Origin: Kiritimatiellia bacterium
GTDB lineage: Bacteria > Verrucomicrobiota > Kiritimatiellia > CAIKKV01
DNA length: 41,767 bases
Direction of reading: 5' to 3'
Assembly (NCBI GenBank): GCA_964201555.1
Contig: CAXNFL010000001.1
Location: forward strand, 1 to 41,767
The position numbers were made by a program, and so were the translations under genes. A model generated the notes under the pieces. It was given only the letters and a program-made list of their open reading frames with translations. It was not told the origin of the DNA and searched no databases. Positions 23,172 to 41,767 of the stretch are shown here, in pieces (the stretch's first letter is position 1; each line of letters opens with the position of its first letter).

Positions 23172-23424
23172 GATCAATCTCCCAAAAAATTAGCAAAACG
23201 ATTCACAACGTTCTTATACATTAGGTATTCATCTATTTTCTGACAAGGATAATCAAGTTGTTCCGCAGCCCTATCCGAACAACGAAGACCCTCCTCACAC
23301 AGAGACACCAAAACACAGAGAAGCGTATCGGATAACAAATGAATCATCCGCTCCGTGGCTTTGTGTTTCCGTGTGATATCTTACTACAAAGCGCTCATCG
23401 TTTGAGGTTCTCCGCACATTCAAC

Positions 23425-23453
23425 TTGTCCGGGCACCGCGTTCCGACTACCCT
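23425..23453 (+). promoter_or_regulatory. Candidate promoter TTGTCC-17-TACCCT, 8 nt from ATG 23462 (leaderless candidate, weaker)
   Basis: TTGTCC gggcaccgcgttccgac TACCCT atcccgct ATG. No SD is present. Confidence 0.3.
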
Positions 23454-23461
23454 ATCCCGCT

Positions 23462-25987
23462 ATGCCTCTGAAACGCCTCCTCCTCAAGTCGTTCCTGACC
23501 ACGATGCTGCTCTGGCTGGTCTTCGCCTGGCCCCTGCCGCGCTACGCCGCCGAGGGCATCCCCTCCTCCGCGCACAACATCGAGCGCCACAGCGTGCGGC
23601 GCATGATCGTGGGCGATCACCTGCAGTTCCACTACTTCTACTGGCTCTTCAGCGACATGCTGGCCGGCGACACGCCGCTCTTCGAAAACCGCTATGAGTT
23701 CAACACGGGCAACGACGCCGAGCGCCGCAACCCCGGCGCCTACAACATGCCCCTCTCGCTCGTCTACGCCGCCGTCCGCCCGCTCACCACCCGCGCCTTC
23801 GCCTGGAACGCCGTCCTCTTCCTCTCGCTCTGGCTGACCCTGCTCTGGACCTTCCTGGCGCTGCGGGGCCTCCTCCAATCAGAGCGCCTCACGCTGCTCG
23901 CGGCCGCCGCCTCCATCGCCTTCCCCTTCCGCTGGGTCATGCTGCTGGGCGGCAGCCCCACCGGCCCCGCCATGATGTGGCTGGCCCTGCTCGCCTTCGG
24001 CCTGAGCCGCGCCTTCCGCGAGGACAAGCCCATCGGCGGCCTCTGGGCGGCCCTGGCCCTCTTCGGCGCCTACATCAACGACCGCCACGTCTTCTTCTTC
24101 GGCTTCCTGGCCGCGCCCTTCCTCGTCCTGCTCTTCCTGCTCCTGCGCGAAGAGATTCCCTGGCGCCGGCGCGCCTTCCGCTCGACCCTGCTTCTCGGCG
24201 CGGCTCCGCTCGCCGCCATGGCGCTGATCCTGGGCGCCCTGGCCGCCCACACGGCCCTTACCGGCTTCGCCAACACCTCCCTCGAGGGCGGCCGCTCCAT
24301 CGACGAGGTGCAGAAGTATGCCCCCTTCGCCTCCGGCCTCATCACCTGGGGCGGCCGCGGCCGCGACGCCCACATCTACCTGGGCTGGGGCTTTTTCCTC
24401 CTGGCCGGCCTGTTCCTGGCCGCGATCGCCGGGGGCTGGCGCAACCGCAACGGGCTCGAAAAACGCCGAGCGGCGGCCGGCCTCCTGGCCTGGCTCGCCT
24501 CGGGCGGCGTCATCCTGATGGCCATGGGCCCCAACGGTCCTTTCGACGGCGCCCTCTTCGATCTCTTCCGGGCGCATATCCCCGGCTCCAAGGCGCTGCG
24601 CCAGCCCGCCAAAATCTTCGCCCTCTTCACCCCCCTGCTGCCGCTCGCCATCGCCATCACCCTGGCCGAGCTGAAGCGCCGCGATTACCTCCGCACCGCC
24701 ACCCTGGCGGTGGTCCTGATGCTGGGCGACTTCGCCATGCAGATCCACCCGTCGATCTGCCTGCTCGACAGCTCCCAGCCCGCCTATGCGGCCGTGGCGG
24801 CCGATGCGGCCGCGGACGGCGGTCACCCAGCCCGGGCCGTCATCCTGCCACTCTGGCCCGGCGATTCCGACTGGGCCGCCGTCTACCAGCACTACGTCTC
24901 GCTCTATCACATCCGCATGCTCAACGGCTACCGCCCGGTCGTGCCCAACGCCTACCGAGACCTGGTGCGCCAATTCTCCTCGCTCAACGTCGGCCGGCTG
25001 AACGACGCCCAGGTCGATGCGCTCCGCGCCCGCGGCTTCCGCTACCTCCTTCTCCACGAAGACGCATTCCCCGAAAAAATAAGCCCGTTCCCGATCGTCT
25101 TCACCCGCAACCGGCTGCTGACCCATCCGCGGCTGGAACTGCTCAATCACACCGGCACGGTCTGGGCCTTCAAGATCCTGCCCGCCCCGCGCGCCTGGAT
25201 TCCCGTCGCCCGCCCCGGCCCGCTCGCCCCGGCCCGCCTCTGGGATTTTGAAAAGGTGCCGCGCACGAATGTCATCGAAAAGACCGACTCCAACGCCTGC
25301 AACGGCATCTACTCGGTAATCAGCGGCCTGGGCTCCGTCACCGGCCGCAGCTTCAAGGTCACCGGGATCTCCAAGCCCACCCTTAATCTTCGCCTGAGGG
25401 GGGAAGGCGAGCTGTGGATGGCGCCCGCCTCGAATGAGCCGCCCCGGCTGGCCGCCGCCGTTCACGCCAAGGACTGGACGTGGTTCCGGCTGCCGCTGGA
25501 CCCGGGCCGCGAGGCGGAGCTGCAGCCCGTCTTCACCGCCCGCGCGGGCGCCGTCGACGCGGACTTCGCGATGCTGACCTCGGATGACTGGACGCCGCCC
25601 CGGCCGGGAAATCCGGTGACCATTCCGGCGGAGTTCTTCTTCCACGCGGGCTGGTCCGATCCGGCCACGGGTGAAGTCCATTTGCGGCCGGATTACGAGC
25701 CGGCCGATTTCATCTTTTACGGCCCCCGCCTGCCCATGGGGCCGGGCACCCTCCGGATCGACCTGGACATCGCCAGCGAGGCCGAACCCGGCACGCCCCT
25801 GGGCCGTGTGGTCGTGGATAACATGGGCACCCGGTGGGGGCCTTTTAACGTCACGGCAGGCAAGCCGTTCCATTGCGTGGTGACGCCGGCAACCGACCGG
25901 CCGCTCTCCCTGAGATTCCAGTACCGGCGCCGGGCGCCGCTCACCCTCCGGTCAGCGACCTTCACCTGCCTGGAGCGGGCCGAGTGA
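23462..25987 (+). CDS. Large polytopic membrane protein with C-terminal soluble domain (possible GT-C-type glycosyltransferase)
   Basis: 841 aa. About 12 hydrophobic segments in the first ~480 aa (MPLKRLLLKSFLTTMLLWLVFAW..., DHLQFHYFYWLF), followed by a ~350-aa non-membrane region. The function is inferred only from this architecture. I chose the start at the second ATG because the preceding 41 codons are AT-richer and lack a hydrophobic N-terminus. Confidence 0.5.
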   Translation: MPLKRLLLKSFLTTMLLWLVFAWPLPRYAAEGIPSSAHNIERHSVRRMIVGDHLQFHYFYWLFSDMLAGDTPLFENRYEFNTGNDAERRNPGAYNMPLSLVYAAVRPLTTRAFAWNAVLFLSLWLTLLWTFLALRGLLQSERLTLLAAAASIAFPFRWVMLLGGSPTGPAMMWLALLAFGLSRAFREDKPIGGLWAALALFGAYINDRHVFFFGFLAAPFLVLLFLLLREEIPWRRRAFRSTLLLGAAPLAAMALILGALAAHTALTGFANTSLEGGRSIDEVQKYAPFASGLITWGGRGRDAHIYLGWGFFLLAGLFLAAIAGGWRNRNGLEKRRAAAGLLAWLASGGVILMAMGPNGPFDGALFDLFRAHIPGSKALRQPAKIFALFTPLLPLAIAITLAELKRRDYLRTATLAVVLMLGDFAMQIHPSICLLDSSQPAYAAVAADAAADGGHPARAVILPLWPGDSDWAAVYQHYVSLYHIRMLNGYRPVVPNAYRDLVRQFSSLNVGRLNDAQVDALRARGFRYLLLHEDAFPEKISPFPIVFTRNRLLTHPRLELLNHTGTVWAFKILPAPRAWIPVARPGPLAPARLWDFEKVPRTNVIEKTDSNACNGIYSVISGLGSVTGRSFKVTGISKPTLNLRLRGEGELWMAPASNEPPRLAAAVHAKDWTWFRLPLDPGREAELQPVFTARAGAVDADFAMLTSDDWTPPRPGNPVTIPAEFFFHAGWSDPATGEVHLRPDYEPADFIFYGPRLPMGPGTLRIDLDIASEAEPGTPLGRVVVDNMGTRWGPFNVTAGKPFHCVVTPATDRPLSLRFQYRRRAPLTLRSATFTCLERAE

Positions 25988-26719
25988 CCGGATCACGCGC
26001 GCCGGCACGCCGACGGCCAGGCTGTTGTCCGGAACGGGCTTGACCACCACGGCCCCCGCGCCGATGACGACATGCTCGCCGATGCAGGCCCCGTCCAGGA
26101 CGGTTACGCGGGCCCCGATCCAGCCGTTCGCCCCGATCGTCAGGGGGCCTTTCGTTTCCATGCCCGCCTGGTCCGCGAAGGGAACCGGCGAGGTGAAGTC
26201 GTATTCGCCGCCGCTTAAAAAATAGGAATAGGCGCCCACCACCGTGCCGGCGCCCACGGTCAGCTCGTTGGAGGAGAACACCTGGCAGTTGGAGCCCAGG
26301 TTCACGCGGTCGCCCAGCGTGATGTTGCCGCCCTTGCAGTAAACGATCGTGTTGCGGCCGATGAAGACGCGGCTCCCGATCGCGATGCCGCGATTGCCCG
26401 CGCCCTTGGCGTCGAGCACGCCGTTGTCGTCCACCACCACCCCGTCGCCCAGGCGGATCTTGGAGGGATGGCGGATGACGACGTGGCGGCCGAAGACGAC
26501 GCCCCGGCCGCAGGAGGCGAATAAAGAGGGGTAGAGAAGCTTGCGGCAGGCCAGGCCGGCCGCGCCGGCAAGCCCGCCGAACAGGCCGAAGACGACTTCG
26601 GCATACAGAACGCGGCCGGTTGCGAGCGGGCCATATTGCAGGTCCCGATACTTGCGCCAGGAGGAACGGCTCGGATCCTCCATCATGGCCCCGGCCTTGA
26701 CGGCGGCTTTGTCATTCAT
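25952..26719 (-). CDS. Left-handed beta-helix (hexapeptide-repeat) acyl/acetyltransferase, EPS-locus type
   Basis: Hexapeptide repeats IRLGDGVVVDDNGVLD, IAIGSRVFIGRNTIVY, ITLGDRVNLGSNCQVF, LTIGANGWIGARVTVL and ACIGEHVVIGAGAVVV. I set the start at ATG 26719 (residue 88 of the track ORF), supported by the adjacent promoter. Confidence 0.8.
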   Translation of the reverse strand: MNDKAAVKAGAMMEDPSRSSWRKYRDLQYGPLATGRVLYAEVVFGLFGGLAGAAGLACRKLLYPSLFASCGRGVVFGRHVVIRHPSKIRLGDGVVVDDNGVLDAKGAGNRGIAIGSRVFIGRNTIVYCKGGNITLGDRVNLGSNCQVFSSNELTVGAGTVVGAYSYFLSGGEYDFTSPVPFADQAGMETKGPLTIGANGWIGARVTVLDGACIGEHVVIGAGAVVVKPVPDNSLAVGVPARVIRSLGPLQAGEGR

Positions 26720-26726
26720 GGCGCAC

Positions 26727-26754
26727 AGCCTACCATGCCCCCGCGCCTTGTCAA
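26727..26754 (-). promoter_or_regulatory. Promoter TTGACA-16-TAGGCT, 7 nt from the acyltransferase ATG (leaderless candidate)
   Basis: Minus strand read base by base: TTGACA aggcgcgggggcatgg TAGGCT gtgcgcc ATG(26719). The -35 lies within the dyad CTTGTC-N5-GACAAG (26747..26763). Confidence 0.5.
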
Positions 26755-26951
26755 AGCGACAAGTAACGGCCCGGACCTGGAGACGGCGGTTCCCCGCCGT
26801 TCCGGCGAAATCAACCTGCGGATGAGTCAAACCCTCGATTTTACTTAGGAAAATGGCATTGCCCGCGGGACACCGACTGCTAGTATGAAAGCGGCGAGGA
26901 CGAGTGTCCCCGCGCAAACAGTGGAAGAAAACAGTCTGAAAGGTGTCTATC

Positions 26952-27605
26952 ATGAGAAAGCTGCTGATCGTAGCCATCACTCTGGCGTTATCCGGCCCCC
27001 TCTGGGCCGAGACCGCTTCCTCTACCCTGGACCTGGTCGCCCTGGGAACCTACACCTTCCCCAAGAATGACGATGTGTACGATCATGCCGCAGGCGCCGA
27101 GGTGCAAGCCCGCTTCTGGCTGACCGATGTGGTGGGCCTGGCGCTGGCCGGCGGCTGGTCGAGATGGGACGTGAACGATCAGAACGCGGTCGTCGGGGAC
27201 GGCAAGATCCTGACCGCTTCGGATATCAGTGGCGACATCGACACCGTTCCCGTGGGCGCCTCCGTGCTCTTGCGGGTAATGGACACCGAGCGCCTCACCC
27301 TCGTGCTCGAAGGCGGCGCGCGCTACGTCTTCACGGACGACTCCGGATCCGATGTCCGAATCATCGTCACCGAGCCGGGCCGGCCCACCGCCACCTCCAC
27401 CCATAGGCTCAAAATCGACGACGGCGTGGTGGCGGTCGCGGCGGCCCAGCTCGAACTGAAACTCACGCCCAACGTGTTCCTGCTGGCCGGCGGCGGCTAT
27501 CAGTGGGATCTCGACAAGGGTGACGTGAAGTTCCTGGACGAGAAGGTCTCGAACAACAAGTTCGAATCCGCCCTGGTCCAGGCCGGACTGGGCGTTTCCT
27601 TCTAA
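26952..27605 (+). CDS. Small outer-membrane beta-barrel protein (copy 1)
   Basis: Signal peptide MRKLLIVAITLALSGPLWA, alternating amphipathic strands and a C-terminal aromatic residue (GLGVSF). GAAAGG lies 8 nt upstream of ATG 26952. It is a paralogue of 27726..28379. Confidence 0.65.
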   Translation: MRKLLIVAITLALSGPLWAETASSTLDLVALGTYTFPKNDDVYDHAAGAEVQARFWLTDVVGLALAGGWSRWDVNDQNAVVGDGKILTASDISGDIDTVPVGASVLLRVMDTERLTLVLEGGARYVFTDDSGSDVRIIVTEPGRPTATSTHRLKIDDGVVAVAAAQLELKLTPNVFLLAGGGYQWDLDKGDVKFLDEKVSNNKFESALVQAGLGVSF

Positions 27606-27625
27606 TCGGATACGCGACAGGCTTT

Positions 27626-27669
27626 AAGACCGTCACCCCCGCTTGCCCGCTGGAGGTGGCGGTCTTTTT
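27626..27669 (+). terminator. Rho-independent terminator
   Basis: AAGACCGTCACC - 17-nt loop - GGTGGCGGTCTT followed by TTT (12-bp stem with one G-T pair). It begins 21 nt after the TAA stop. Confidence 0.6.
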
Positions 27670-27725
27670 CAATTGAACCGCCCGCTGACCGGGCCTATGA
27701 TTCCGCCATCCACCCAAGGAGCCTT

Positions 27726-28379
27726 ATGAAAACCCTCGCTCTCCTGTTGGCCGTTCTCCTCGCCTCCGTCTCCTCCACCCGGGCCGCCGATATCCGCGGA
27801 TTGACCCCTGAGCTGGTCGGACTCGGAACCTTGTATGTGCCGGCCGACGATGACACCTACGACCTCGGCGCCGGCATGGAGATCCAGGCGCGCTTCTGGA
27901 TCACCCCCTACCTCGGACTCGCCCTGGCCGCCGGCGGCGCCGACTATGCCATCGACGAGCAGGACATCCGGATCCGCGAGCAGAACCTGGCGGTCGACGC
28001 CAACCTCGACGGCGATGTGGGCCTTTCGCCCGTCGGCGTCTCGCTGCTCCTGCGCCCCCTCCGGACGCCGCGCGTCGCCCTGACGCTGGAAGGCGGCGTC
28101 CGTTATGTGTCCGTGGATTCGAACGCGGAAATCGAACTGGTGTCCCAGGAGCCCGGCCTGCGCACGTATGTCAAGGACACGGTGGATATCGAGGACGGCA
28201 TCGTGGCGGTGGCGGTGGCCACGCTTGAAGTGACGCTCGCCAACCAGGTCTCGCTGATCGGGGGCGCCGGCTATCAATTCGACCTGCAAAAGGGCGATGT
28301 GGAGTTCGTGGACCTGGACCTGGGCAAAAACGAACTGGAAGCGGTCCTCGTTCAAGCCGGCCTCCTGATCCGGTTCTAG
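27726..28379 (+). CDS. Small outer-membrane beta-barrel protein (copy 2)
   Basis: Signal peptide [20 protein letters not shown] and C-terminal LLIRF. AAGGAG lies upstream. It shares blocks with copy 1: [92 protein letters not shown]. Confidence 0.65.
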
Positions 28380-30677: not shown

Positions 30678-32543
30678 TCACCGGCGCAAAAACCGGGCAT
30701 CCCAGATGGCGACATTCATAAGCGCCCACAGCACGTGGTTGTGGTTGTGCTTCATGGACAGATGCTCGGCGATCAGGCGGTCCACCTCCGCCTCGCGCAG
30801 GTTCCGCTTCAGCACCGGCGACTCATGGAGCAGCTGAATCATCCAGTCCTTGAACCCCGTGCGCAGCAGGTTCTTCACCGGCAGGCTATACCCCTGCTTC
30901 CCCCGCTCCACGATGCTCTCGGGCAGCATCCCCTTGAGCGCCGCCCGGAACAGGTGCTTGGTCCGGAACCCCTTCAGCTTCCACTCGCCGGGCAGCGACG
31001 CCAGAAACTCCACCAGCACGTGGTCCAGCAGCGGCACGCGGACCTCCAGCGAGCTGGCCATGCTCATCTTGTCCACCTTCATGAGCACGCTGTCCGTCAT
31101 CATGAAGCGCGTGTCGATGTACAGCTCGCGGTTGACCGGGTCCCGGGCGTCGCACCGGGCCGCGTACTCGGCCAGCTGGCGGAACGGCGAGGGGTTGATC
31201 CGCCCCAGGAACTCCGGCGCAAAAAGGCGGCGGTCCTGCTCCGTCCCGCCGAAAAACTGCCAGCGCAGATGGCCGCCCGAATCCGCCAGCCGCGCGCCCT
31301 GCAGGAAGCGCTTCAGCATGTTGACGGCGCCCTTCTTCTGGGGCCGGTCCGGCAGCGCCGCCACCAGCGCGTCAATCATCGCGTGCCTCACCGGGCGCGG
31401 CACGCCCCGGAAATAGCGGTTCAGCCGGCTGGCCTTGAACCGGTCGTAGCCGGCGAAAATTTCATCCCCGCCCTCGCCGCTCAGGCACACCGTCACATCG
31501 CGCCGGGCCTGCTGGCAAACCCGCATCAGCGGCACGCAGGACAAATCGGTCATCGGCTCGTCGAGGTGCCAGAGCGACTTCTCCACATCCGCCGGCGTCA
31601 GGTCGTCCACCATCAGCACCTGGTGGTCGGTGCCGAAGTAATCCGCCACCACCTTGGCGTGTTCCAGCTCGCTGAACGACTTGTCGGCATACCCGATGGT
31701 AAACGTCCGCAGCGGGCCGGAAATGTGCCGGCGCATCATGGCCACCAGCGCGCTCGAGTCGAGCCCGCCCGAGAGGAAGACGCCGAGCGGCACATCGCTC
31801 ATCAGGTGGCTCGCCGTCACCTCGTCGAGCAGCCCCCGCAGCCTCTCCACCGCCTCGTCGAAGGTGATGCCGGCCACGGGCTTGAACGACAGGTCCCACC
31901 ACGGCTCGATGCGAAGGTCGCCGTTTTCCAGCACGATTCGATGGCCGGCCGGCAGCTTGAAGATCCCCTCGAACATCGTCGCCGGCGCCGGGGTGAACTC
32001 GAATCCGATGTAGTCGTAAAGCGCCTGCGCATCCAGCTCGCGCGGCACGGAGGGATCCTCCAGGATCGCCTTGATCTCCGAGGCGAACCGGAGCCGCCCG
32101 TTGTGCCAGTGGTAATACAGCGGCTTGATGCCGATCCGGTCGCGCGCCAGGAACAGGCGCTTCCAGGCCGAATCCCAGATCGCAAAGGCGAACATGCCGC
32201 GCAGGTGGTGCACCACGTCCACGCCCCAGGTCTCATACCCGTGCACGATCACCTCGGAGTCGGCGTTGCCGGAAAAAACGTGCCCCGCAGCCTCCAGCTC
32301 CCGGCGCAGCTCCCTGAAGTTGTAGATCTCGCCGTTGAACACCAGCCACACCGTTCCGGACTCGTTGCCCATGGGCTGGTGGCCGTGGGCCGTGAGGTCG
32401 ATGATGCTCAGCCGCCGGAAGGCCAGGGTCGCGCCGTCCTCCGCATGCAGGCCTTCGTCATCCGGGCCGCGGTGGCGGATGGCGTTCGCCATCCGGGTTC
32501 CCAGCGCCGGATCATGCCAGTTGAATCCGCAGATGCCGCACAT
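30678..32543 (-). CDS. asnB: Asparagine synthase (glutamine-hydrolysing) family amidotransferase
   Basis: MCGICGF (N-terminal nucleophile Cys2), a GATase-II domain, and the synthetase PP-loop VFLSGGLDSS. Confidence 0.9.
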   Translation of the reverse strand: MCGICGFNWHDPALGTRMANAIRHRGPDDEGLHAEDGATLAFRRLSIIDLTAHGHQPMGNESGTVWLVFNGEIYNFRELRRELEAAGHVFSGNADSEVIVHGYETWGVDVVHHLRGMFAFAIWDSAWKRLFLARDRIGIKPLYYHWHNGRLRFASEIKAILEDPSVPRELDAQALYDYIGFEFTPAPATMFEGIFKLPAGHRIVLENGDLRIEPWWDLSFKPVAGITFDEAVERLRGLLDEVTASHLMSDVPLGVFLSGGLDSSALVAMMRRHISGPLRTFTIGYADKSFSELEHAKVVADYFGTDHQVLMVDDLTPADVEKSLWHLDEPMTDLSCVPLMRVCQQARRDVTVCLSGEGGDEIFAGYDRFKASRLNRYFRGVPRPVRHAMIDALVAALPDRPQKKGAVNMLKRFLQGARLADSGGHLRWQFFGGTEQDRRLFAPEFLGRINPSPFRQLAEYAARCDARDPVNRELYIDTRFMMTDSVLMKVDKMSMASSLEVRVPLLDHVLVEFLASLPGEWKLKGFRTKHLFRAALKGMLPESIVERGKQGYSLPVKNLLRTGFKDWMIQLLHESPVLKRNLREAEVDRLIAEHLSMKHNHNHVLWALMNVAIWDARFLRR

Positions 32544-32544
32544 G

Positions 32545-33285
32545 TTAAGCTCCGATCCGGATCATTTTGGAAATGGCCGGCGATCCGGCCCGGGCCGTCA
32601 GGCCCGCCCGCCTCGCCATCGCCTCCAGTTTTTTCGAAAGGCCCGGCCGCCCGAGCGCCCGGTGCAGGACCAGCGGCCAGAAAAACTGGCGGATCACCGC
32701 GGCCTCGCGGAAACCCTCACGCTCAAAGGCCTCCGTGACCTGCCGATGCGTGAACGGAGTCCACCGGCGGGTGTTGCCCTCCATCTTCTTCTTCACCCCG
32801 AAAAACAGGCCGCCCAGCCGGTGCAGCCCCTCGTGCAGCGGATATTCAATGATGACCTCCTCGCGCGCCACCCGGCACAGCTCCGCGATCAGCTCGGGCC
32901 ACCGGACGCAGTGCGTCAGCAGGCGGATGCAGAGGACGGCGTCGAACGCGCGGTCGGGAAAGGGAAGGTCCGTCACCTCGCCGGTGACGAAGCGGCACGT
33001 GCCCGCGGCCAGGAGATCCTCGATCCGCCGGCGGCAGGCCGGATCGGTGCCCAGCACCGTGAAAGGCCGGCCCTCCTCCGACAGGGGCCGCGCCAGCTGG
33101 CCGTGCCCGCCGCCCACGTCCAGGATCGTGCGGCGCCGGTCGGGCCCGAGCAGGGTTCGCACGGCCGCGGCCTGCACGTCCAGGAGCCAGGCGCCGGTGG
33201 GGCCGGCGAAGCGGGCGGCATAGCCGTCCGAAGCCGTCTCCACATCCGCGGTTTCACGAATGGACTCTGGCGTATCCGGTTGCAT
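32545..33285 (-). CDS. Class I SAM-dependent methyltransferase
   Basis: Contains ILDVGGGHGQLA (motif I) and AFDAVLCIRLL. The stop lies 1 nt before the asnB ATG. Confidence 0.8.
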   Translation of the reverse strand: MQPDTPESIRETADVETASDGYAARFAGPTGAWLLDVQAAAVRTLLGPDRRRTILDVGGGHGQLARPLSEEGRPFTVLGTDPACRRRIEDLLAAGTCRFVTGEVTDLPFPDRAFDAVLCIRLLTHCVRWPELIAELCRVAREEVIIEYPLHEGLHRLGGLFFGVKKKMEGNTRRWTPFTHRQVTEAFEREGFREAAVIRQFFWPLVLHRALGRPGLSKKLEAMARRAGLTARAGSPAISKMIRIGA

Positions 33286-33978: not shown

Positions 33979-36561
33979 ATGTCCCTTCGCCGAACCTTCA
34001 TTCTCCTGGCCGCCCTCGCCGGCGCCGCCTCCACCCAGGGGGCGGAACCCCTTCTCGGCACCCCCACCGTGCCGGAGTTCGTCTCCTCGCAGCCCTTCTA
34101 CCACCCCTCCGTGGCCGCCGATTCCAAGGGGCAGCCGCACTTCGTCTGCGATCCGGGCGGAAACACGCAGTTCGCGAAGTTCCATCGCGTGAACGGCGCC
34201 TGGAAGGGCGGCGTCTTCGCCGTGGGCGCGCACGGGGGCCGCTACGACGCCTCCCGCCTGTACATCGGCCAGATCGAAATCGACGGCAAGGACCGCGCCT
34301 GGGTTTCCTGCAAGTTCGGCTGCAAGGACTTCGGCTCGATGCTCGGCTACGGCGTCTGGCTGTTCGGCAACGTCGCCAACGATTCGACCCCGTCCGAGCT
34401 CTTCTTCAAGTTCCTGAACGCCAAGGGCCACGGCTGCATCTCCACGGACGCCAAATACCCCGACATGGGCGTGGGCATGGCCACCGGCGGCCTCTATGAC
34501 AAGCTGAATGCGGCCGGAAACGAGATCGGCTCGGGCACCATCAACGCCGGGCCCGGCGGCGAAAAGATGCGCTTCCGCATCGCCTCCTACGCGCCCCGCT
34601 ACCCCGAGGGGTCCACCGCCTCCTACCCCGACGGCATCTGGCACACCGCCATGAACGGCTACTCCGGGTTTGCCTCGGCCTACCAGAACTCGGCCCGCTA
34701 TAAGGCCGGAGCCGGACCGATCAACTGGGCCTCCTACAGCGTCTATCCGCAACAGGGCAGCGATTACAGCCACACCGGCGTGGGCGTCGACCTGAGCGAT
34801 CCGCGCGTCGGCTACATGGGCTGCGTGTTCAACGGCAAGGTGGCCATCAATATCTGGGACGGCTCCAAGCTGGTCTTCTCGCCAAGCAGCCTGAAGATCC
34901 TGGATTATGCCGCCACCTACGAGCCCCGCCACACGATCCAGTTCGCCCCCGCCCCCGCGCACATCGGCGGGACCTTCGTGGTCTGGAACTCCGGCGGCCG
35001 CATCAAGCTCTGCTACCTGTCCAAGGCCGGCGTCGCCGGAACCGTCCGCGACATCACCCCCGGCGATTCCCCGGCCGCCTGCTCGGACCGCTACGGCACG
35101 ATCCACATCGTCTACAACCACTCCGGCATCCACTACCTGAAGATTCCCGTGATGTCGGTGGCGCCCCTCGCCCCGGCGGGCCGCCTCGCGACCCGCAGCC
35201 CGCTCTTCCGCTGGGCGGGCGCGCCCGGCGCCACGTCCTACACGATCCAGCTCACCCAGGATGGCGTCACGCTGCCGGCCTTCGCCGTCACCCCCGGCGC
35301 CTCCAACACCTGGCAGCTTTCCTCCAATTATCCCGTCGGCTCCTATAGCTGGCGCCTCAAGCAGGGCGGGGTCGACAGCACCAAGCCCTGGTCCCCCCGG
35401 CTGGCCTTCGTCATCCCGCCCGAGGCGCCGGCGCCCCTGTCGCCCGACGGACGCTCCGATAGCTTCCCCTCCATCCCCTCCTTCACGTGGCAGGACAACG
35501 ATCCGGCCGTCAACCGGTTCGTCCTCCAGCTATTCGAGGGCGCCGATCTGCTGGGCGAGATGGATGTGTATTCGGACGGAACCAAGACCGATTTCTCGGA
35601 AGACTGGACCAACAACCTGCAGGCCGGCAGCTACACCTGGCGCATCAAGGCCTTCCGCGACCGGCCCGACTTCCCCGTGGCCAGCGCCTGGTCCGAGCCT
35701 CGCGCCTTCCAGCTCGGCGTTCCCGAAATTCCCGTCGTCACCACTCCGGCCGATAAAACGGCCTTCGGCCCGGCGACGACAAACATCCCGGTCGCCTGGA
35801 TGGCCGCGAACGGCGCCGACTCCTATGTCATGAAGGTGCTGATGAATGGAAAGGCGTTCGCCACGCATGGCGGGATCCTGATCACGGACGGCGCGCTGGC
35901 CGACACCTTCTCCCCGGGCTACTACTCCGTGATGGTTCGCGGCGTCAGCGCCGGAGCCGGCCCGGGCCCGTGGAGCGACCTGGTCACCTTCATCATCACG
36001 CGCAACATGACCCCCGAGGGCGCCGTCCTGAACCAGACGCCCGCCCTCTTCAAGTGGACCCGCTCCGAGCCGGCCACCCGCTACCTGCTCACGCTGTCGC
36101 AGTATGACGCCGGCTCCGGCAAGTACATCGTCAAACGCGAGGCCTGGGTTGCGCAGCCGGCCTCGGGCCAGCCCCGCTGGACCCCGCCCTACGTCATTCC
36201 GAACGGCCGGTTCCGCTGGGCGATCACGGACTATAACGGCGACACGCGCGGCTATACGCAGTCGGCGCTCTTCCAGATCAAGAACTCCGGCCATGATTCC
36301 TGGAATGATCCCGCCCTCGTCGCGGGCACCTGGCGCGTGCTCACGGACTGGCGCTGGCGCGAAATGACGTTCCAGAAGGACGGCGTCCTGCGCACCGTTC
36401 AAGGGGATGGCTCCGCCTTCACCCGCGCGCGGTGGTCGGCCACCGGCGAAATCCTGACCATGGTCTCGGACGTCACGGAGCGCTGCCCCTACACGGTCAC
36501 CGCCACCTCCCTCACCTTCACCCTGCCCAGCGGCAACGTGAAGGTCCTGGTCCGCAAGTAA
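33979..36561 (+). CDS. Secreted multidomain protein of unknown function (paralogue A)
   Basis: 860 aa with signal peptide MSLRRTFILLAALAGAASTQG. The architecture is a ~370-aa N-domain, four ~90-aa beta-sandwich-like modules (about nt 35160..36285), and a ~90-aa lipocalin-like C-terminal domain. The N-domain contains SKGQPHFVCDPGGNTQF, YDASRLYIGQIEIDGKDRAW, GIWHTAMNGY and INIWDG. The modules each have the pattern F-x-W ... Y ... G-x-Y-x-W-R-x-K ... W-S. The C-terminal domain contains GTWRVLTDWRWREMTFQKDG. Confidence 0.8.
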   Translation: MSLRRTFILLAALAGAASTQGAEPLLGTPTVPEFVSSQPFYHPSVAADSKGQPHFVCDPGGNTQFAKFHRVNGAWKGGVFAVGAHGGRYDASRLYIGQIEIDGKDRAWVSCKFGCKDFGSMLGYGVWLFGNVANDSTPSELFFKFLNAKGHGCISTDAKYPDMGVGMATGGLYDKLNAAGNEIGSGTINAGPGGEKMRFRIASYAPRYPEGSTASYPDGIWHTAMNGYSGFASAYQNSARYKAGAGPINWASYSVYPQQGSDYSHTGVGVDLSDPRVGYMGCVFNGKVAINIWDGSKLVFSPSSLKILDYAATYEPRHTIQFAPAPAHIGGTFVVWNSGGRIKLCYLSKAGVAGTVRDITPGDSPAACSDRYGTIHIVYNHSGIHYLKIPVMSVAPLAPAGRLATRSPLFRWAGAPGATSYTIQLTQDGVTLPAFAVTPGASNTWQLSSNYPVGSYSWRLKQGGVDSTKPWSPRLAFVIPPEAPAPLSPDGRSDSFPSIPSFTWQDNDPAVNRFVLQLFEGADLLGEMDVYSDGTKTDFSEDWTNNLQAGSYTWRIKAFRDRPDFPVASAWSEPRAFQLGVPEIPVVTTPADKTAFGPATTNIPVAWMAANGADSYVMKVLMNGKAFATHGGILITDGALADTFSPGYYSVMVRGVSAGAGPGPWSDLVTFIITRNMTPEGAVLNQTPALFKWTRSEPATRYLLTLSQYDAGSGKYIVKREAWVAQPASGQPRWTPPYVIPNGRFRWAITDYNGDTRGYTQSALFQIKNSGHDSWNDPALVAGTWRVLTDWRWREMTFQKDGVLRTVQGDGSAFTRARWSATGEILTMVSDVTERCPYTVTATSLTFTLPSGNVKVLVRK

Positions 36562-36568
36562 GTCGCAA

Positions 36569-36588
36569 GGCCGGCCTCCGCGCCGGCC
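36569..36588 (+). repeat. Hairpin GGCCGGC-CTCCGC-GCCGGCC, copy 1 (identical 20-mer repeated at 36653..36672)
   Basis: Exact 20-nt direct repeat with 84-nt periodicity. A third hairpin, GGCGCAC-GCGGAG-GTGCGCC (36602..36621), lies between the two copies. Confidence 0.6.
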
Positions 36589-36652
36589 CCCTTCCTCATT
36601 CGGCGCACGCGGAGGTGCGCCCTCCATTCAACGCCTTGCCGGCTCACCGGAG

Positions 36653-36681
36653 GGCCGGCCTCCGCGCCGGCCTTCTTTTTT
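36653..36681 (+). terminator. Rho-independent terminator (hairpin copy 2 plus T-tract)
   Basis: GGCCGGC-CTCCGC-GCCGGCC followed by TTCTTTTTT. Confidence 0.65.
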
Positions 36682-36718
36682 GACACTGTTTGACGATCTG
36701 CCTTTTATTTGTTATCCT
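36680..36718 (+). promoter_or_regulatory. Candidate promoters for paralogue B (TTGACA-17-TTTTAT and TTGACG-17-TATCCT)
   Basis: Two overlapping -35/-10 pairs lie 37-50 nt upstream of ATG 36755. GGAGGG sits 7 nt upstream of the ATG. Confidence 0.4.
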
Positions 36719-36754
36719 ATATGCATCACGCAGGAAACAAATGGAGGGCTGACC

Positions 36755-39028
36755 ATGAACTATCGCCTTTTCTTTCTCTCTCTTCTAACCGCCGCCGGCG
36801 TCGCGCTGGCCGCAGATATCCCGGCTCCTGTCATCGGCGCCATCGGAGATGAAGAGGTTGTCGACAACCTCTACATGGAGCATCCCTCCGTGGCCACCGA
36901 CTCCAAGGGCCAGCCCCACATGGTCTGCGACAACGGCGGGAACACGCAGTTCATGAAATACCACCGGGTAAACGGCCAGTGGAACGGCGGGGTCTTTGCC
37001 GTCGGCGCCCGCGGCGGCCGCTACGACGCCTCGCGCCTCTACATCGGGCAGATCGAGATCGATTCCCGCGACCGCGCCTGGATTTCCTGCAAGTTCGGCG
37101 TCAAGGAATACGGCGCCATGTACGGCCAGGGCATCTGGCTCTTCAAAAATGTCTCCACCACCGCCTCGCCGCCCGAGCAGTTCTTCCGCTTCGTCTGCGT
37201 CTACAAAGGCATGGGCGTGGTGACCACCGACGCGAAATATCCCGACCAGGGCGTCGTCATCGGCACCTTCGGCAACTACGCCATCCTCTACTCCTCCGGC
37301 CAAACCCTGTCCACGGGCTCCCTGAACGGCGGCCCCGGCGGGGAAAAGGTGCGCGCCCGCATCGCCTCCTACGCCCCCCGCTTCGGCGCCGCCCCCGGCG
37401 GGAATTACCCGGACGGCATCTGGCACACCGCCATGAACGGCTACAGCGCCGCCTCCTCGCGCTACCAGAACTCGGCCCGCTACAAGAGCGGCCTCGGGCC
37501 GGTGGAGTGGGCCGCCTACGGCGCCTACCCGCAGCAGGGCTCCGACTTCTCCCACCCCGGCATCGGCATCGACCTCGTCAACCCGCAGATCTGCTACATC
37601 GCCAGCGTCTTCAACAACCGCCTCTGCATCAACATCTGGGACGGCACCCGCCTGCTCTATTCGTCATCCGCCCTGAAAGTGCTCGATTACAACGCGACCT
37701 ATGAAGGGCGGCACGGGATCGCCTTTGCCCCCGCCCCGTCCGGCGGCACCTTCGTGTTCTGGACCTCGGGCGGACGCATCAAGTCGACCTTCCTGTCGCC
37801 CGCCGGCACGGCCTCCGAAACGATCGATATCACCGCCGGCCGCTCGCCCGCCGCCACCACCGACCGCTTCGGCAACCTGCACCTGGCCTATTCCTCCGGC
37901 GGCGCCCGCTACCGCAAGATCATCCTCTCCTCCCTCGACCCCCTCGCCCCGGCGGGCCGCCTCGTCGACACCCGCGCGCCCGCGTTCTCCTGGAGCGACA
38001 CCCTGGCTCCCTCCTACACCCTCGCGCTGAGCCGCGACGGCGCGCTTCTCGAAAGCGCCACCGTGACGACCAACTCCTGGACGCCCGCCTCCAACCTCGA
38101 GGTCGGCGTCTACTCCTGGATCGTCAAGGAAGGCGAAGCCGACAGCGACAAGCCCTGGTCGCGCCCCCTGGCGTTCACCATTCCCCCCCTCATGCCCGTG
38201 CCCGCGGCCCCCGCCAGCCGCCTGCTTGCCTCCGAGGTGGCGGCCGCCGCCTTCTCCTGGAGCAACGCCGACGACCGCGTCACCGGCTTCAAGGTGGAAC
38301 TCTTCAAGAATACCGACTCGCTGGGCGTCCGCATCGCCTCCGCCCCGGCGCTGGCCTGGCCCGAGCCGCTGGCCCCGGGCGCCTATTCCTGGCGCGTGAA
38401 AGCCCTTCGCGTGCTGGCGGGCTACCCCGTCTCGAGCGAGTGGAGCCCCGCCCTGCGCTTCCAGGTGGAGGTGCCCGGCGCCTGCGCCATCCTCACCCCG
38501 GCCGCCCTTGAAACGTTCCCCCCGGGCGCCCTCACGCTGAGCGCCTCCTGGACCCCTGCGGAGGGAGCGGCCTCCTACCGGCTGACCCTTCTTTACAATG
38601 GGTCGCCGCTAAGCTCCGTGTTCGTCAAGGAGACGACGCACGACTTTGCCCTCACGGCCCAGCCGGGCTACCTGACGTTATTGGTGCAGCCCAAGAACGC
38701 CGCCGGAAAAGGAGAGACGAGCCCGGCCCGCACCTTTATCGTCAACCGCGCCATGACCCCGTCGAATGGCGCGGTGCTCGCCACCGCCCCGGCGGGATTC
38801 CGCTGGACCCGCTCCACGGCGGCCACCCAATACCTGTTCAAGCTCGCGCGGTACGACGAGACCGCCAAGCGATTCGTCGTCGTGCTGCAAAACTGGGCGG
38901 CACAGGCCAAGCATGCGCCCGCCTATTCGTTCGGCCCCGGCGCCTACCGCTGGACCCTCACCGATTACGCGGGCACGGCCCCGGGCTTCACCTCCTCCGC
39001 CTATTTCGTCGTGCTGGACCCGGAATAA
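36755..39028 (+). CDS. Secreted multidomain protein of unknown function (paralogue B)
   Basis: 757 aa with signal peptide MNYRLFFLSLLTAAGVALA. The N-domain is collinear with paralogue A (SKGQPHMVCDNGGNTQF, YDASRLYIGQIEIDSRDRAW, GIWHTAMNGY, INIWDG). Four beta-sandwich-like modules follow (about nt 37930..39025), and there is no lipocalin-like tail. Confidence 0.8.
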   Translation: MNYRLFFLSLLTAAGVALAADIPAPVIGAIGDEEVVDNLYMEHPSVATDSKGQPHMVCDNGGNTQFMKYHRVNGQWNGGVFAVGARGGRYDASRLYIGQIEIDSRDRAWISCKFGVKEYGAMYGQGIWLFKNVSTTASPPEQFFRFVCVYKGMGVVTTDAKYPDQGVVIGTFGNYAILYSSGQTLSTGSLNGGPGGEKVRARIASYAPRFGAAPGGNYPDGIWHTAMNGYSAASSRYQNSARYKSGLGPVEWAAYGAYPQQGSDFSHPGIGIDLVNPQICYIASVFNNRLCINIWDGTRLLYSSSALKVLDYNATYEGRHGIAFAPAPSGGTFVFWTSGGRIKSTFLSPAGTASETIDITAGRSPAATTDRFGNLHLAYSSGGARYRKIILSSLDPLAPAGRLVDTRAPAFSWSDTLAPSYTLALSRDGALLESATVTTNSWTPASNLEVGVYSWIVKEGEADSDKPWSRPLAFTIPPLMPVPAAPASRLLASEVAAAAFSWSNADDRVTGFKVELFKNTDSLGVRIASAPALAWPEPLAPGAYSWRVKALRVLAGYPVSSEWSPALRFQVEVPGACAILTPAALETFPPGALTLSASWTPAEGAASYRLTLLYNGSPLSSVFVKETTHDFALTAQPGYLTLLVQPKNAAGKGETSPARTFIVNRAMTPSNGAVLATAPAGFRWTRSTAATQYLFKLARYDETAKRFVVVLQNWAAQAKHAPAYSFGPGAYRWTLTDYAGTAPGFTSSAYFVVLDPE

Positions 39029-39114
39029 GCGGCTCACGTCGGGTATTACCCCATGGGGATTGCCCGCCGTTTACCCCAGAATACCCCCCGGACACACGGA
39101 CCGAAGGGGGTCAC

Positions 39115-41767
39115 TTGTTTATCTGGGAAAAAAACTGGATTCCGGCGGGCGTGGACGAGCCCCCGCTGCGGGATGAGCTGCTCAGCGCCGACCAACTGAA
39201 GCAGCATGGCCGCCATATCGCCGCCCTTCACCAGGTCGTCTCCCGCTGGTCGCGCGAACGGCTGCTTGCCCGCCTCGCCGAAAATGAGACGATCCTGGTG
39301 GACGTCAGCAAGATGCTGATCCGCATCCTCGCCGAAAAACGGCGGATCATGCCCGCCGCGGAGTGGCTGCTCGACAACTTCTACCTGATCGAAGAGCAGA
39401 TCCGCATGGCCCGGCGCCACCTGCCCCGCGGCTACAGCCGCGAGCTGCCCCGCCTGGCCAAGGGCCCCTCGGCCGGCCTCCCGCGCGTCTACAGCATCGC
39501 CCTGGAGGCCATCTCCCACGGCGACGGCAAGCTGGACCCCGACAGCCTCGCCCTCTTCGTCACCGCCTACCAGTCCGTCCAGCCCCTCCAGCTGGGCGAG
39601 CTCTGGGCCATCCCCATCATGCTCCGCCTCGCCCTCATCGAAAACCTGCGCCGCGTGGCCGTCCGCATCGCCGCCGGCAACCAGGACCGCGAGCGGGCCG
39701 CCGCGTGGGCGGCCCAGATGCGCGAGGCGGCCGAGAAGGACCCCAAAACCCTCATCCTCGTCACGGCCGACATGGCCCGCTCCACCCCCGCCATGACCAG
39801 CGCGTTCGTGGCCGAGTTCGTCAACCAATTACAGGGCCAGAACTCCTCGGTGGCGCTGCCCCTCACGTGGATCGAGCAGCGGCTCTCGGAGTTCAACCAG
39901 ACCACCGAGCAGCTCGTACACGCCGAAATCCAGCAGCAGGCCGCCGACCACGTTTCCATCACCAACAGCATCGGCAGCCTGCGCACCCTCGGCACCACGG
40001 ACTGGCGCACCTTCGTCGAAAACCTCAGCATCGTCGAGCACCGGCTGCGGGAAGACCCCGCCGCCGTCTATCTCCAGATGGATTTCCAGACCCGCGACCG
40101 GTACCGCCGCGCCGTCGAAAAGCGCGCCCGCAAAAGCGGGGAAACGGAGGAAGAGGTCGCCCGGCAGGCGGTCGAACGCGCCCGCTCCGCCATCTGCCCG
40201 CCCGGCGACGACCGGCCCCGCCATGTGGGCTTCCACCTCCTCGGCTCCGGCTGCCGCCGCCGCCGCCGCCTGGCGCTCTACCTCGGCTCCGTCGCCCTGC
40301 TCACCCTTCTCTTCGCCGCCGCCCTGCCTCTCCAGCCGCCTTCCCTCCGGCTGAATCCCGACGCCCTGGCCGCCGCCCTGCTGGGCTCGTTCTGCGCGGT
40401 CCACGTGGCGCTCGCGCTCGTCAACTGGCTGATCACCTTCTTCGCCAAACCCCTGCTGCTGCCGAGGCTCGACTATTCGGAAGGCATTCCCGCGGAATCC
40501 CGCACCCTCGTGGTCATTCCCACCCTCCTCACCTCGCCGGAGGCCGTTCAATCCCTGACCGAAATGCTCGAAATCCGCTTCCTCGCCAGCCGCGACAAAA
40601 ACCTGAGCGTCGGGCTGTTGACCGATCTTCCCGATGCCGCCCAGCCCCTGCTTCCCGGCGATGAGGAGCTGGTGGAGCTGGCCAGCCTGAAGATCATGGA
40701 GCTGAACAACAAGTATGCCCAGCCCCACAACGGCTCCTTCTTCCTCTTCCACCGGCCGCGCCGCTACAATCCCCAGGAAGGCGCGTGGATGGGCTATGAG
40801 CGCAAGCGCGGCAAGCTGGGCGCCGTCAACGCCCTCCTGCGCGGGGCCCCCTGGGGCGGCCCCGACGACGCCTTTTCGCACGTGACGGGCCCCCTGGCCG
40901 CCCTCCAGGATATCAAGTACATCATCACGCTCGACACCGACACCCAGCTGCCGCGCGATGCCGCCCGCCTTCTTGTGGGCACCCTGGCCCACCCGCTGAA
41001 TTGCCCCCGCCTCGACCCCCAAACCGGCCGCCTGTTCGCCGGCTACGCCATCCTCCAGCCCCGCGTCACCGAAACCCCCTCCCCCGCCAAGCGGAGCCGC
41101 TACGCGCTGCTCTTCGGGCAGGAGCCCGGCATCGACCCCTACACCCGGGCCAACGCCGAGATCTACCAGGACCTGTTCGACGAGGGCTCCTTCATCGGAA
41201 AAGGCATCTATGAGGTGGACGCGTTCGAAAAAGCCATCGACAACCGCCTGCCCGAAAACCGGATCCTGAGCCACGACCTCATCGAAGGCTGCTACGCCCG
41301 CTCCGGCCACATCAGCGACGTGCAGCTGCTCGAGGCCTATCCGACGCGCTACGAAACCGACGCCTACCGCCGCCACCGCTGGATCCGGGGCGACTGGCAG
41401 ATCGCCGCGTGGATCCGCTCGCGGGTTCCCGGCCGGGGGAACAGCCGCGCCGTTCCCAATCCGCTCGACTGGCTCTCGCAGTGGAAAATTCTCGACAACC
41501 TGCGCCGCAGCCTCGTGCCCCCCGCCGCGCTCCTGCTCCTGCTTCTCGCCTGGCTGCGGCTGCCCAACCCCTCCTTCTGGATCCTCACCGCCCTGGCCCC
41601 CTTCCTGATGCCGCCCCTCTTTGCCTGCCTGCCCGGCTTTCTCCGGAAACAGGAGGATGTTCCCCTTTCCCGCCACCTCGCCGCCGCCGGCCAGGGCTGC
41701 CTGCGGCGCCTCGGCCAGGTGCTCTTCACCCTCGCCTGCCTGCCCGCGGAGGCCGTCTCCAATCTCG
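39115..41767 (+). CDS. ndvB: Cyclic beta-1,2-glucan synthase (NdvB/ChvB/Cgs family), N-terminal 884 codons; continues past window end
   Basis: Not in the ORF track because it has no stop in the window; hand translated. Contains AAEWLLDNFYLIEEQIRMARRHLPRGYSRELPRL, LGELWAIPIMLRLALIENLRR and TM segments. The GT84-type catalytic region contains TLVVIPTLL, YIITLDTDTQLPRDAA, FIGKGIYEVDAF and HDLIEGCYARSG..QLLE. I propose the start at TTG 39115 (GAAGGGGG 6 nt upstream), which is the first in-frame start after the preceding gene. GTG 39151 is an alternative. Confidence 0.85.
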   Translation, partial: MFIWEKNWIPAGVDEPPLRDELLSADQLKQHGRHIAALHQVVSRWSRERLLARLAENETILVDVSKMLIRILAEKRRIMPAAEWLLDNFYLIEEQIRMARRHLPRGYSRELPRLAKGPSAGLPRVYSIALEAISHGDGKLDPDSLALFVTAYQSVQPLQLGELWAIPIMLRLALIENLRRVAVRIAAGNQDRERAAAWAAQMREAAEKDPKTLILVTADMARSTPAMTSAFVAEFVNQLQGQNSSVALPLTWIEQRLSEFNQTTEQLVHAEIQQQAADHVSITNSIGSLRTLGTTDWRTFVENLSIVEHRLREDPAAVYLQMDFQTRDRYRRAVEKRARKSGETEEEVARQAVERARSAICPPGDDRPRHVGFHLLGSGCRRRRRLALYLGSVALLTLLFAAALPLQPPSLRLNPDALAAALLGSFCAVHVALALVNWLITFFAKPLLLPRLDYSEGIPAESRTLVVIPTLLTSPEAVQSLTEMLEIRFLASRDKNLSVGLLTDLPDAAQPLLPGDEELVELASLKIMELNNKYAQPHNGSFFLFHRPRRYNPQEGAWMGYERKRGKLGAVNALLRGAPWGGPDDAFSHVTGPLAALQDIKYIITLDTDTQLPRDAARLLVGTLAHPLNCPRLDPQTGRLFAGYAILQPRVTETPSPAKRSRYALLFGQEPGIDPYTRANAEIYQDLFDEGSFIGKGIYEVDAFEKAIDNRLPENRILSHDLIEGCYARSGHISDVQLLEAYPTRYETDAYRRHRWIRGDWQIAAWIRSRVPGRGNSRAVPNPLDWLSQWKILDNLRRSLVPPAALLLLLLAWLRLPNPSFWILTALAPFLMPPLFACLPGFLRKQEDVPLSRHLAAAGQGCLRRLGQVLFTLACLPAEAVSNL

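Follow-up and report, generated by a model that had tools for sequence, protein, structure and literature searches.

Tandem exported proteins of a Kiritimatiellia bacterium carry a predicted seven-bladed propeller of an unannotated, class-restricted family and may act on envelope glycans

The window analyzed here, 41,767 nucleotides of contig CAXNFL010000001.1 from a Kiritimatiellia bacterium (GenBank assembly GCA_964201555.1; 1.9 Mb, 69% complete), carries two neighboring, collinear genes, here called A and B, that encode large paralogous proteins with signal peptides. The Kiritimatiellia are anaerobes, mostly uncultured, that abound in sediments, lakes, and guts; little is known about the biology of their envelopes and polysaccharides. 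Both proteins begin with a predicted seven-bladed beta-propeller, followed by a stalk of four modules that resemble fibronectin type III (FN3) domains in fold. As far as our sequence searches reach, the propeller belongs to a family that is restricted to the class Kiritimatiellia and absent from annotation databases. Our tentative reading, held at somewhat less than even confidence, is that A and B are envelope-associated proteins that bind or process glycans.

Genes A and B are intact plus-strand open reading frames (ORFs), and a gene caller returned products of the same lengths, 860 and 757 amino acids, in the same order, from a contig of a sister strain. This agrees with a preliminary description of the window, which had placed a tandem pair of paralogs of these sizes here. 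Third-position GC is 0.91 in A and 0.88 in B, in a genome of 65% GC, so both look like real genes; a GGAGGG sequence lies 8 nt 5' of the ATG of gene B. BLASTP aligns the two proteins end to end over 772 positions with 49% identity (E = 0), a divergence at which a dN/dS comparison is saturated. The N-terminal domain (N-domain) is better conserved (60%) than the repeat region (41%), which bears out the earlier impression that the N-domains are collinear and highly similar. Each copy also has a signal peptide of its own, as had been described. Read from the sequence, the leaders of A (MSLRRTFILLAALAGAASTQG, followed by AE) and B (MNYRLFFLSLLTAAGVALA, followed by AD) show the n/h/c pattern, with a basic n-region, a hydrophobic core, and a small-residue cleavage motif (STQG before AE, ALA before AD), and the lipobox cysteine is absent from both. 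All of the 45 close homologs (45/45) start with a similar hydrophobic leader. A and B are thus predicted to be exported by a Sec-type signal peptide.

The N-domain, about 374 residues long, had been described as belonging to no recognized family, and the sensitive searches uphold this. Pfam and NCBIfam gave no match on the N-domain of A or B at E ≤ 1, and PDB sequence searches with the single protein, a 25-sequence profile, and a 72-sequence profile returned nothing credible for it. AlphaFold2, given a 25-sequence alignment, predicts an all-beta domain (pLDDT [predicted local distance difference test] 93.4; predicted template modeling score 0.92), with a pLDDT of at least 90 at 326 of 374 residues. 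The 28 to 29 strands of the model would make up seven blades of four strands each, with the N-terminal strand closing the propeller. Foldseek matched the model to beta-propellers only in the PDB, at template modeling (TM) scores of about 0.48 to 0.59. The best E-values came from bacterial sialidases (7lbu, 3.3e-8; 1eur; 2ber) at TM 0.48 to 0.51 and root mean square deviation (rmsd) 8 to 9 Å. Geometry was closer for seven-bladed WD40 proteins, designed seven-bladed propellers, PLL2, and CV39L (TM 0.53 to 0.59, rmsd 5.5 to 6.5 Å), and a viral structure library likewise gave generic propeller matches. The preliminary description had allowed for a new hydrolase fold; on the model, the N-domain is instead an ordinary seven-bladed beta-propeller, and its novelty lies in the sequence family.

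How large is this family, and where is it found? When 1.84 billion representatives of clusters at 50% identity were searched exhaustively with a profile, 318 proteins matched at E ≤ 1e-3, 143 of them at E ≤ 1e-30; in these proteins the propeller stands at the N terminus, at the C terminus, or alone. The named records all come from metagenome-assembled genomes (MAGs) of Kiritimatiellia, Verrucomicrobiota, or the Planctomycetes-Verrucomicrobia-Chlamydiae (PVC) group, several of them from lakes. Within a sample of the class, the family occurs in 17 of 201 genomes and 14 of 102 genera. Across a phylum sample of 401 genomes, nine genomes had a match, all of them Kiritimatiellia, with none in other classes. 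Besides A and B, the source assembly contains a third copy, a fragment at the beginning of contig C65. A literature search combining Kiritimatiell* with propeller found nothing relevant. As a separate observation, a 40%-identical propeller homolog (locus L034, 8001-9122) lies on a 78-kb contig, CAYPFA010000004.1, that was binned as "Candidatus Woesearchaeota archaeon" in the same study as a family-carrying Verrucomicrobiota MAG; this contig is probably mis-binned rather than the site of an archaeal copy.

The family tends to come in multiples. Tandem pairs occur in genomes G132, G019, G070, G118, and G044, and one contig, that of the A ortholog P0016, carries a paralog array of probably four or more copies. 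In a maximum-likelihood tree of 45 N-domains, A falls in a clade of proteins of 855 to 860 amino acids, all with the C-terminal tail described below (support 100/98), and B falls in a clade of proteins of 757 to 772 amino acids (support 100/99). Because A and B sit in separate supported ortholog clades, the duplication is old, with both copies maintained. That one copy might be a decaying duplicate, a concern raised earlier, is ruled out by the intact frames, the high third-position GC, and the conserved ortholog clade to which each copy belongs.

More distant members of the family give some hint of function through the domains fused to them. None of 72 such proteins has a Pfam match on the propeller itself (0/72), and 26 of the 72 carry FG-GAP/VCBS repeats outside it. 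Single members carry a CBM32-type F5/8-C domain, a BACON domain, a weakly GH32N-like region, or a DUF6298/apiosidase-like region. A few have what looks like a C-terminal membrane anchor, judging from weak matches to small membrane-protein families. Altogether, the fusion partners suggest carbohydrates and the cell surface.

Conservation within the propeller suggests a single site. We scored it on 168 aligned full-length domains, with sequences weighted and residues numbered as in A. Among polar residues, weighted conservation is highest at E195, Y235, and R317 (0.98 each), followed by H222 and D271 (0.95 each), D262 and N291 (0.92 each), and N237 (0.86). All of these are kept in B, where E195, Y235, N237, D262, and R317 become E197, Y237, N239, D264, and R319. 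In a blade-versus-blade comparison with hhalign, blades 1 and 7 are alike (96.7%) and share the motif G-x-x-P-S-I-A-x-D-x-x-G-x-x-H-I-V-Y; every other pair scores 24% or less. H222 and D271 occupy positions that recur in other blades. By eye, an Asp ends the first strand (D48, D157, D271, D370) and a His or aromatic residue opens the next one (H54, W108, H222, Y279, H376) in several blades, and these recurring positions are taken as structural. E195, Y235, N237, D262, and R317, by the alignment, form a single non-repeated set in blades 4 to 6. Three of them, E195, D262, and R317, lie 3 to 5 residues before the presumed innermost strand of blades 4, 5, and 6, respectively. In propellers, residues just before the innermost strand tend to line the opening of the central channel, and the conserved residues would share one face of the domain. 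With no detectable likeness except between blades 1 and 7, the blades do not look like equivalent binding units; the set E195/Y235/N237/D262/R317 suggests one putative ligand pocket or active site, not a multivalent lectin.

The remainder of each protein is predicted to be a stalk. AlphaFold2 modeled residues 391 to 860 of A from 38 aligned sequences with a mean pLDDT of 91.5, in the order four seven-stranded sandwiches, a short helix, and eight more strands. The top Foldseek matches of the stalk were all tandem FN3/Ig arrays (LAR, PTP-delta, gp130, and fibronectin; E 1e-12 to 1e-9). The modules are also homologous to one another by hhalign (M1-M2, 99.3%; M1-M3, M1-M4, M2-M3, and M2-M4, 95 to 97%; M3-M4, 56%), and BLASTP of A against B gives a second, register-shifted alignment (E 6e-6). 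The four repeated beta-sandwich modules of the preliminary description are thereby substantiated. The Pfam fn3 model matched none of the modules of A and B, and relaxing the threshold to E ≤ 10 for the individual modules and the tail brought up nothing but noise; some homologs have faint precomputed fn3 matches. On the model, the modules are FN3-type at the level of fold, beyond the reach of Pfam fn3. In tandem FN3 arrays such as LAR/PTP-delta (6tpw) and fibronectin (1fnf), seven-stranded sandwiches likewise stand in a row, but A and B would have a bacterial stalk, not a receptor ectodomain, and its sequences have diverged past Pfam fn3.

The tail of A had been called lipocalin-like and unique to A. 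It is indeed present only in A and its orthologs, and it opens with a GTW motif and is modeled with eight strands, but neither lipocalin nor any other Pfam model matched the tail of A or five orthologous tails, so that a lipocalin-like character is plausible at the level of fold only. Scores of the tail against the modules in hhalign were set aside, because the tail columns also hold the fifth FN3 module of other subfamilies. The features of the locus are collected in Table 1.

Table 1. Positions of the two paralogs, their predicted domains, and adjacent features in the window
Feature	Position	Strand	Basis
AsnB-type amidotransferase	30678-32543	-	Pfam; directly downstream of the methyltransferase
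S-adenosylmethionine (SAM) methyltransferase	32545-33285	-	Pfam
185-aa protein, no known family, ribbon-helix-helix (RHH)-like N-terminal segment	33355-33912	-	ORF; no Pfam/NCBIfam match
Gene A, 860 aa: signal peptide, propeller, four FN3 modules, beta-barrel tail	33979-36561	+	ORF and translation
Signal peptide of A (residues 1-22), Sec/signal peptidase I (SPI) type, without lipobox	33979-34044	+	Read from sequence
N-domain of A (residues 23-396), predicted seven-bladed beta-propeller, unannotated family	34045-35166	+	AlphaFold2, Foldseek
Near-invariant, non-repeat polar stretch: E195, (H222), Y235, N237, D262, (D271), R317; blades 4-6	34561-34929	+	Conservation
Four predicted FN3-type beta-sandwich modules of A (residues 395-482, 483-582, 583-675, 676-770)	35161-36288	+	AlphaFold2, Foldseek, hhalign
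C-terminal ~90-aa predicted eight-stranded beta domain of A, GTW motif	36289-36558	+	AlphaFold2, pLDDT about 80
Spacer hairpins, 20-nt GC, two identical copies; second with T-run, predicted terminator of A	36569-36683	+	Sequence, terminator scan
Promoter-like site before B: TTGACG, 17-nt spacer, TATCCT, extended TG	36690-36718	+	Consensus scan only
Gene B, 757 aa: signal peptide (1-19), propeller (24-396), four FN3 modules (397-757), without tail	36755-39028	+	
N-domain of B (predicted propeller)	36824-37942	+	Profile match 36827-37942, E 1.5e-199
Four predicted FN3-type modules of B	37943-39025	+	Collinear alignment with A
Start of cyclic beta-1,2-glucan synthase (Cgs/NdvB) gene, TTG start	39115-41766	+	PDB 8rf9/8rf0, E 1.8e-147

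Several known families invite comparison with the propeller head, and we built profiles of BNR_2 domains and of three PF14583 homologs from genomes of the same class for use with hhalign. The GH33 sialidases (BNR_2, PF13088; 7lbu, 1eur, and 2ber) also have an extracytoplasmic propeller head, often with beta-sandwich modules after it, and the conserved Glu/Tyr/Asp/Arg set of A and B is reminiscent of sialidase chemistry. However, the sialidase head has six blades versus seven in A and B, and TM scores are about 0.5. Against BNR_2, hhalign gave 3.7% with a 25-sequence profile and 6.3% with the 168-sequence profile; the lone short match is a blade motif, sPAAxTDrxGNiHLvY against YPaxxxxxDGxvHitY. 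The head has no canonical SxDxGxTW Asp-boxes and no BNR Pfam match, and R317 is the only Arg universal across the 168 domains, which have no family-wide Arg triad. We reject membership in the sialidase/BNR_2 group on the blade number, the hhalign scores, and the lack of a Pfam match; a very distant shared ancestry of the blade motif is conceivable.

The other comparisons end in the same way. PL22 oligogalacturonate lyases (PF14583) are seven-bladed propellers that act on acidic glycans through a central active site of His, Arg, and acidic residues, and membership is rejected on an hhalign score of 0.1%, no Pfam match, and no place in the top 50 Foldseek matches. The PLL/PHL lectins (Photorhabdus PLL2, 6rgg) and CV39L (6gxs) are secreted seven-bladed propellers too, at TM 0.55 to 0.56. 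These lectins bind glycans by one motif repeated in every blade, whereas the head of A and B has only two blades alike, a non-repeated polar set, and no sequence similarity to them; with no binding motif repeated per blade, it is not a member. Finally, the FG-GAP/VCBS-repeat proteins of the PVC group are exported and include seven-bladed propeller types, and FG-GAP repeats follow the domain in about a third of the distant members, but A and B carry no such repeats and their N-domain matches no FG-GAP model.

The surroundings of the pair offer another line of evidence. The preliminary description set the pair between an AsnB/methyltransferase string headed by an RHH-like unknown and a cyclic beta-1,2-glucan synthase gene. 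All three genes of the string are confirmed, with the 185-amino-acid unknown next to A. Its RHH-like segment reads RPITVTLPERILKGL..., and the gene is divergent from A across a short, AT-rich spacer of 66 nt. Homologs of it adjoin an A-type gene at locus L023 and lie 7.5 kb from a paralog pair at L022, and it may be a local regulator. The best NCBIfam match of the AsnB-type protein, below the cut-off, is TIGR03108, the amidotransferase of the XrtA/PEP-CTERM (exopolysaccharide [EPS]) system. The AsnB-methyltransferase pair adjoins family members in five related MAGs and is found again on the P0016 contig; in the more distant G118, an AsnB gene and a hexapeptide acetyltransferase gene lie near family members. 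A WcaF-like acetyltransferase gene (25952-26980, minus strand) also lies near AsnB in the window. It is contiguous with the AsnB-methyltransferase pair in relatives (L023), and here an insertion stands between it and AsnB, with a PIN/DUF6364 toxin-antitoxin pair, a gene for malate/lactate dehydrogenase, and two small genes of outer-membrane protein (OMP)-like type. A large membrane protein is also among the products of the genes further upstream.

Two further genes near the acetyltransferase may be recorded. An 882-amino-acid protein (23339-25987, plus strand) matches no family, with a chance-level match to YfhO only; it is conserved beside the acetyltransferase at L023 and has a homolog with 40% identity at L033. 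Beside its gene lies one for a 750-amino-acid DUF4838 protein (20925-23177, minus strand) with a weakly GH2 sugar-binding-like region.

Across genomes, the most recurrent neighbor of the family is an unannotated outer-membrane beta-barrel of about 230 residues that ends in RWTF or RWSF, with a Pro/Ala-rich N-terminal linker in the longer copies (L014, 13870-15647; L027, 5960-7825; L022, 12970-13944; L029, 10873-11886; L031, 153-1154). Its gene stands beside family members in 8 genomes. The barrel is present in 15 of 17 propeller genomes versus 57 of 184 others (odds ratio 16.7; Fisher p = 5e-6, not corrected for phylogeny). The insertion in the window includes two tandem ORFs of 217 to 220 amino acids (26943-28379, plus strand) with weak OMP_b-brl matches, which are at best very distant from this barrel family (best BLAST E 5e-4). 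The P0016 contig shows how these elements can combine: the AsnB-methyltransferase pair is followed by two small genes, an A-type gene, two OMP-sized genes, and three large genes of paralog size (959, 948, and at least 1090 amino acids), the 959-residue product being family member P0032. One paralog array includes a glycosyltransferase gene and a YdjC-like gene, and one family copy adjoins a sulfatase gene. A search for conserved synteny therefore found some, with the AsnB-methyltransferase pair and with the OMP gene.

On the other side of the pair, the match to PDB 8rf9/8rf0 confirms the earlier assignment of a cyclic beta-1,2-glucan synthase gene (cgs), which begins 86 nt past gene B. Adjacency of B and cgs is found only in this genus, including G132, and in the sister strain. 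The preliminary description had proposed looking for co-occurrence with ndvB, and this proved to be at chance level: cgs is present in 4 of 17 propeller genomes versus 39 of 201 overall (Fisher p = 0.75, phylogeny ignored). Genomes G129 and G149 carry the propeller family and cgs on different contigs. With adjacency limited to one genus and class-wide co-occurrence at chance, cgs is rejected as a general partner of the family.

Each copy had also been thought to have its own terminator and promoter, and this holds in part. The spacer between A and B (36562-36754) contains a 20-nt GC hairpin, GGCCGGCCTCCGCGCCGGCC, in two identical copies at 36569-36588 and 36653-36672. The first follows directly after the stop codon of A, and only the second has a T-run behind it; there a terminator scan places an 11-bp GC hairpin followed by a T-run (36649-36676), 88 nt past the stop codon of A. 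B is preceded by a promoter-like site, although one such site is about the chance expectation for the region. A terminator for B was not detected: the same scan found no terminator-like site in the 86-nt spacer between B and cgs (39029-39114), so the two genes may be co-transcribed by read-through.

It is tempting to assemble these observations into a role at the cell envelope. We propose that the head would bind, and possibly cleave or modify, a carbohydrate that belongs to the envelope or extracellular matrix of the same cell, using a single ligand pocket made up of E195, Y235, N237, D262, and R317, with the FN3 stalk acting as a spacer. The setting would be a recurrent envelope neighborhood of paralog arrays, small OMP barrel genes, and genes for an EPS-type AsnB-like amidotransferase and a methyltransferase. 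A glycan seems the most likely ligand given the fusion partners, the neighboring genes, the relatives in fold, and the biology of Kiritimatiellia. Several points weigh against this proposal. The Sec signal speaks for export past the inner membrane and no further. The matches in fold are of a kind that any propeller might give (TM scores of only 0.5 to 0.6), and a sequence or profile link to carbohydrate-active families was sought in Pfam, NCBIfam, the PDB, and hhalign comparisons and none was found. The placement of the conserved residues on one face comes from the order of the strands. Gene contexts vary, and some family copies lie among unrelated housekeeping genes. The OMP barrel family is far wider than the propeller family: of the 201 class genomes, 72 have the barrel, usually in single copy. 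A search for the barrel in this 69%-complete assembly did not find it.

How would the same evidence look if the head were an enzyme? It is possible, though unlikely, that the head founds a new family of carbohydrate-active enzymes (CAZymes), a hydrolase or lyase with a putative center at E195/Y235/N237/D262/R317 and an acidic or modified polysaccharide as substrate. The polymer would come either from the environment or from the cell itself, in the latter case as an amidated or methylated exopolymer, and paralog subfamilies would differ in specificity. We are similarly doubtful that A and B represent a new secreted polysaccharide-degrading family (glycoside hydrolase or polysaccharide lyase) for feeding on external polymers, with the head as catalytic domain and the FN3 modules as linkers. 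Such a role would fit the near-invariant Glu/Asp/Tyr/Arg/Asn set, which resembles catalytic sites, the sialidases that gave the best Foldseek E-values, the CBM32, BACON, and GH-like domains fused to distant relatives, and the sulfatase gene next to one copy; Kiritimatiellia are, moreover, known as polysaccharide degraders. However, no degradative locus of glycosidases, sulfatase arrays, or sugar transporters recurs around family members, the profiles show no likeness to BNR_2/GH33 or PL22, and the family is patchy within the class. Far less probable still is a very divergent enzyme of the sialidase superfamily, acting on a nonulosonic or acidic sugar with a Glu-Tyr pair, an Asp acid/base, and a carboxylate-binding Arg. 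E195, Y235, D262, and R317 do echo GH33 chemistry, and both the leading Foldseek hits and the only profile-profile match, the blade motif common to BNR_2, lead to that superfamily, but the seven blades, the low TM scores and high rmsd, the very low hhalign scores, the single universal Arg, and the missing Asp-boxes and BNR match all speak against it.

Alternatively, the proteins may do no chemistry at all. A and B could be non-catalytic surface proteins or adhesins, part of a surface layer or matrix and held by the small OMP barrel, with the propeller making contacts to protein or between cell and matrix. This would suit the multi-paralog arrays interleaved with OMP genes, the co-occurrence of the barrel with nearly all propeller genomes, the FN3 stalks typical of surface proteins, and the apparent membrane anchor (from weak matches) at the end of some distant relatives; the terminator of A, its short upstream spacer, and the promoter-like site of B have been counted in its favor as well. 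Yet a near-absolute polar Glu/Tyr/Asp/Arg set across subfamilies that are 23 to 50% identical would be unusual for a structural contact, sequence reading and Pfam found no known anchoring signal in A or B, and the OMP gene is missing from the genome as assembled, so we consider this improbable. A connection to the cyclic glucan next door is harder to credit. B, and perhaps A, would then be a periplasmic accessory that acts on the glucan product of Cgs by binding, trimming, or modifying it, as might be guessed from the close spacing without a terminator, from the adjacency kept in G132 and the sister strain, and from an SPI signal compatible with the periplasm. But beyond the genus no family member adjoins cgs, co-occurrence in the class is at chance, and two genomes hold the genes on separate contigs, which leaves this link very unlikely.

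What is new here is a sequence family, for which there are now a confidently predicted structure and a few candidate functional residues; the fold and the architecture are familiar. The practical yield is modest, in that the domain is worth registering but reveals no new biological principle. A catalytic head in these putative envelope glycan proteins would mean a new CAZy family, and a binding or structural one would amount to a class-specific surface component. In either case, a tandem-multiplied family beside OMP and EPS-type genes may be a reasonable entry to the envelope biology of Kiritimatiellia.

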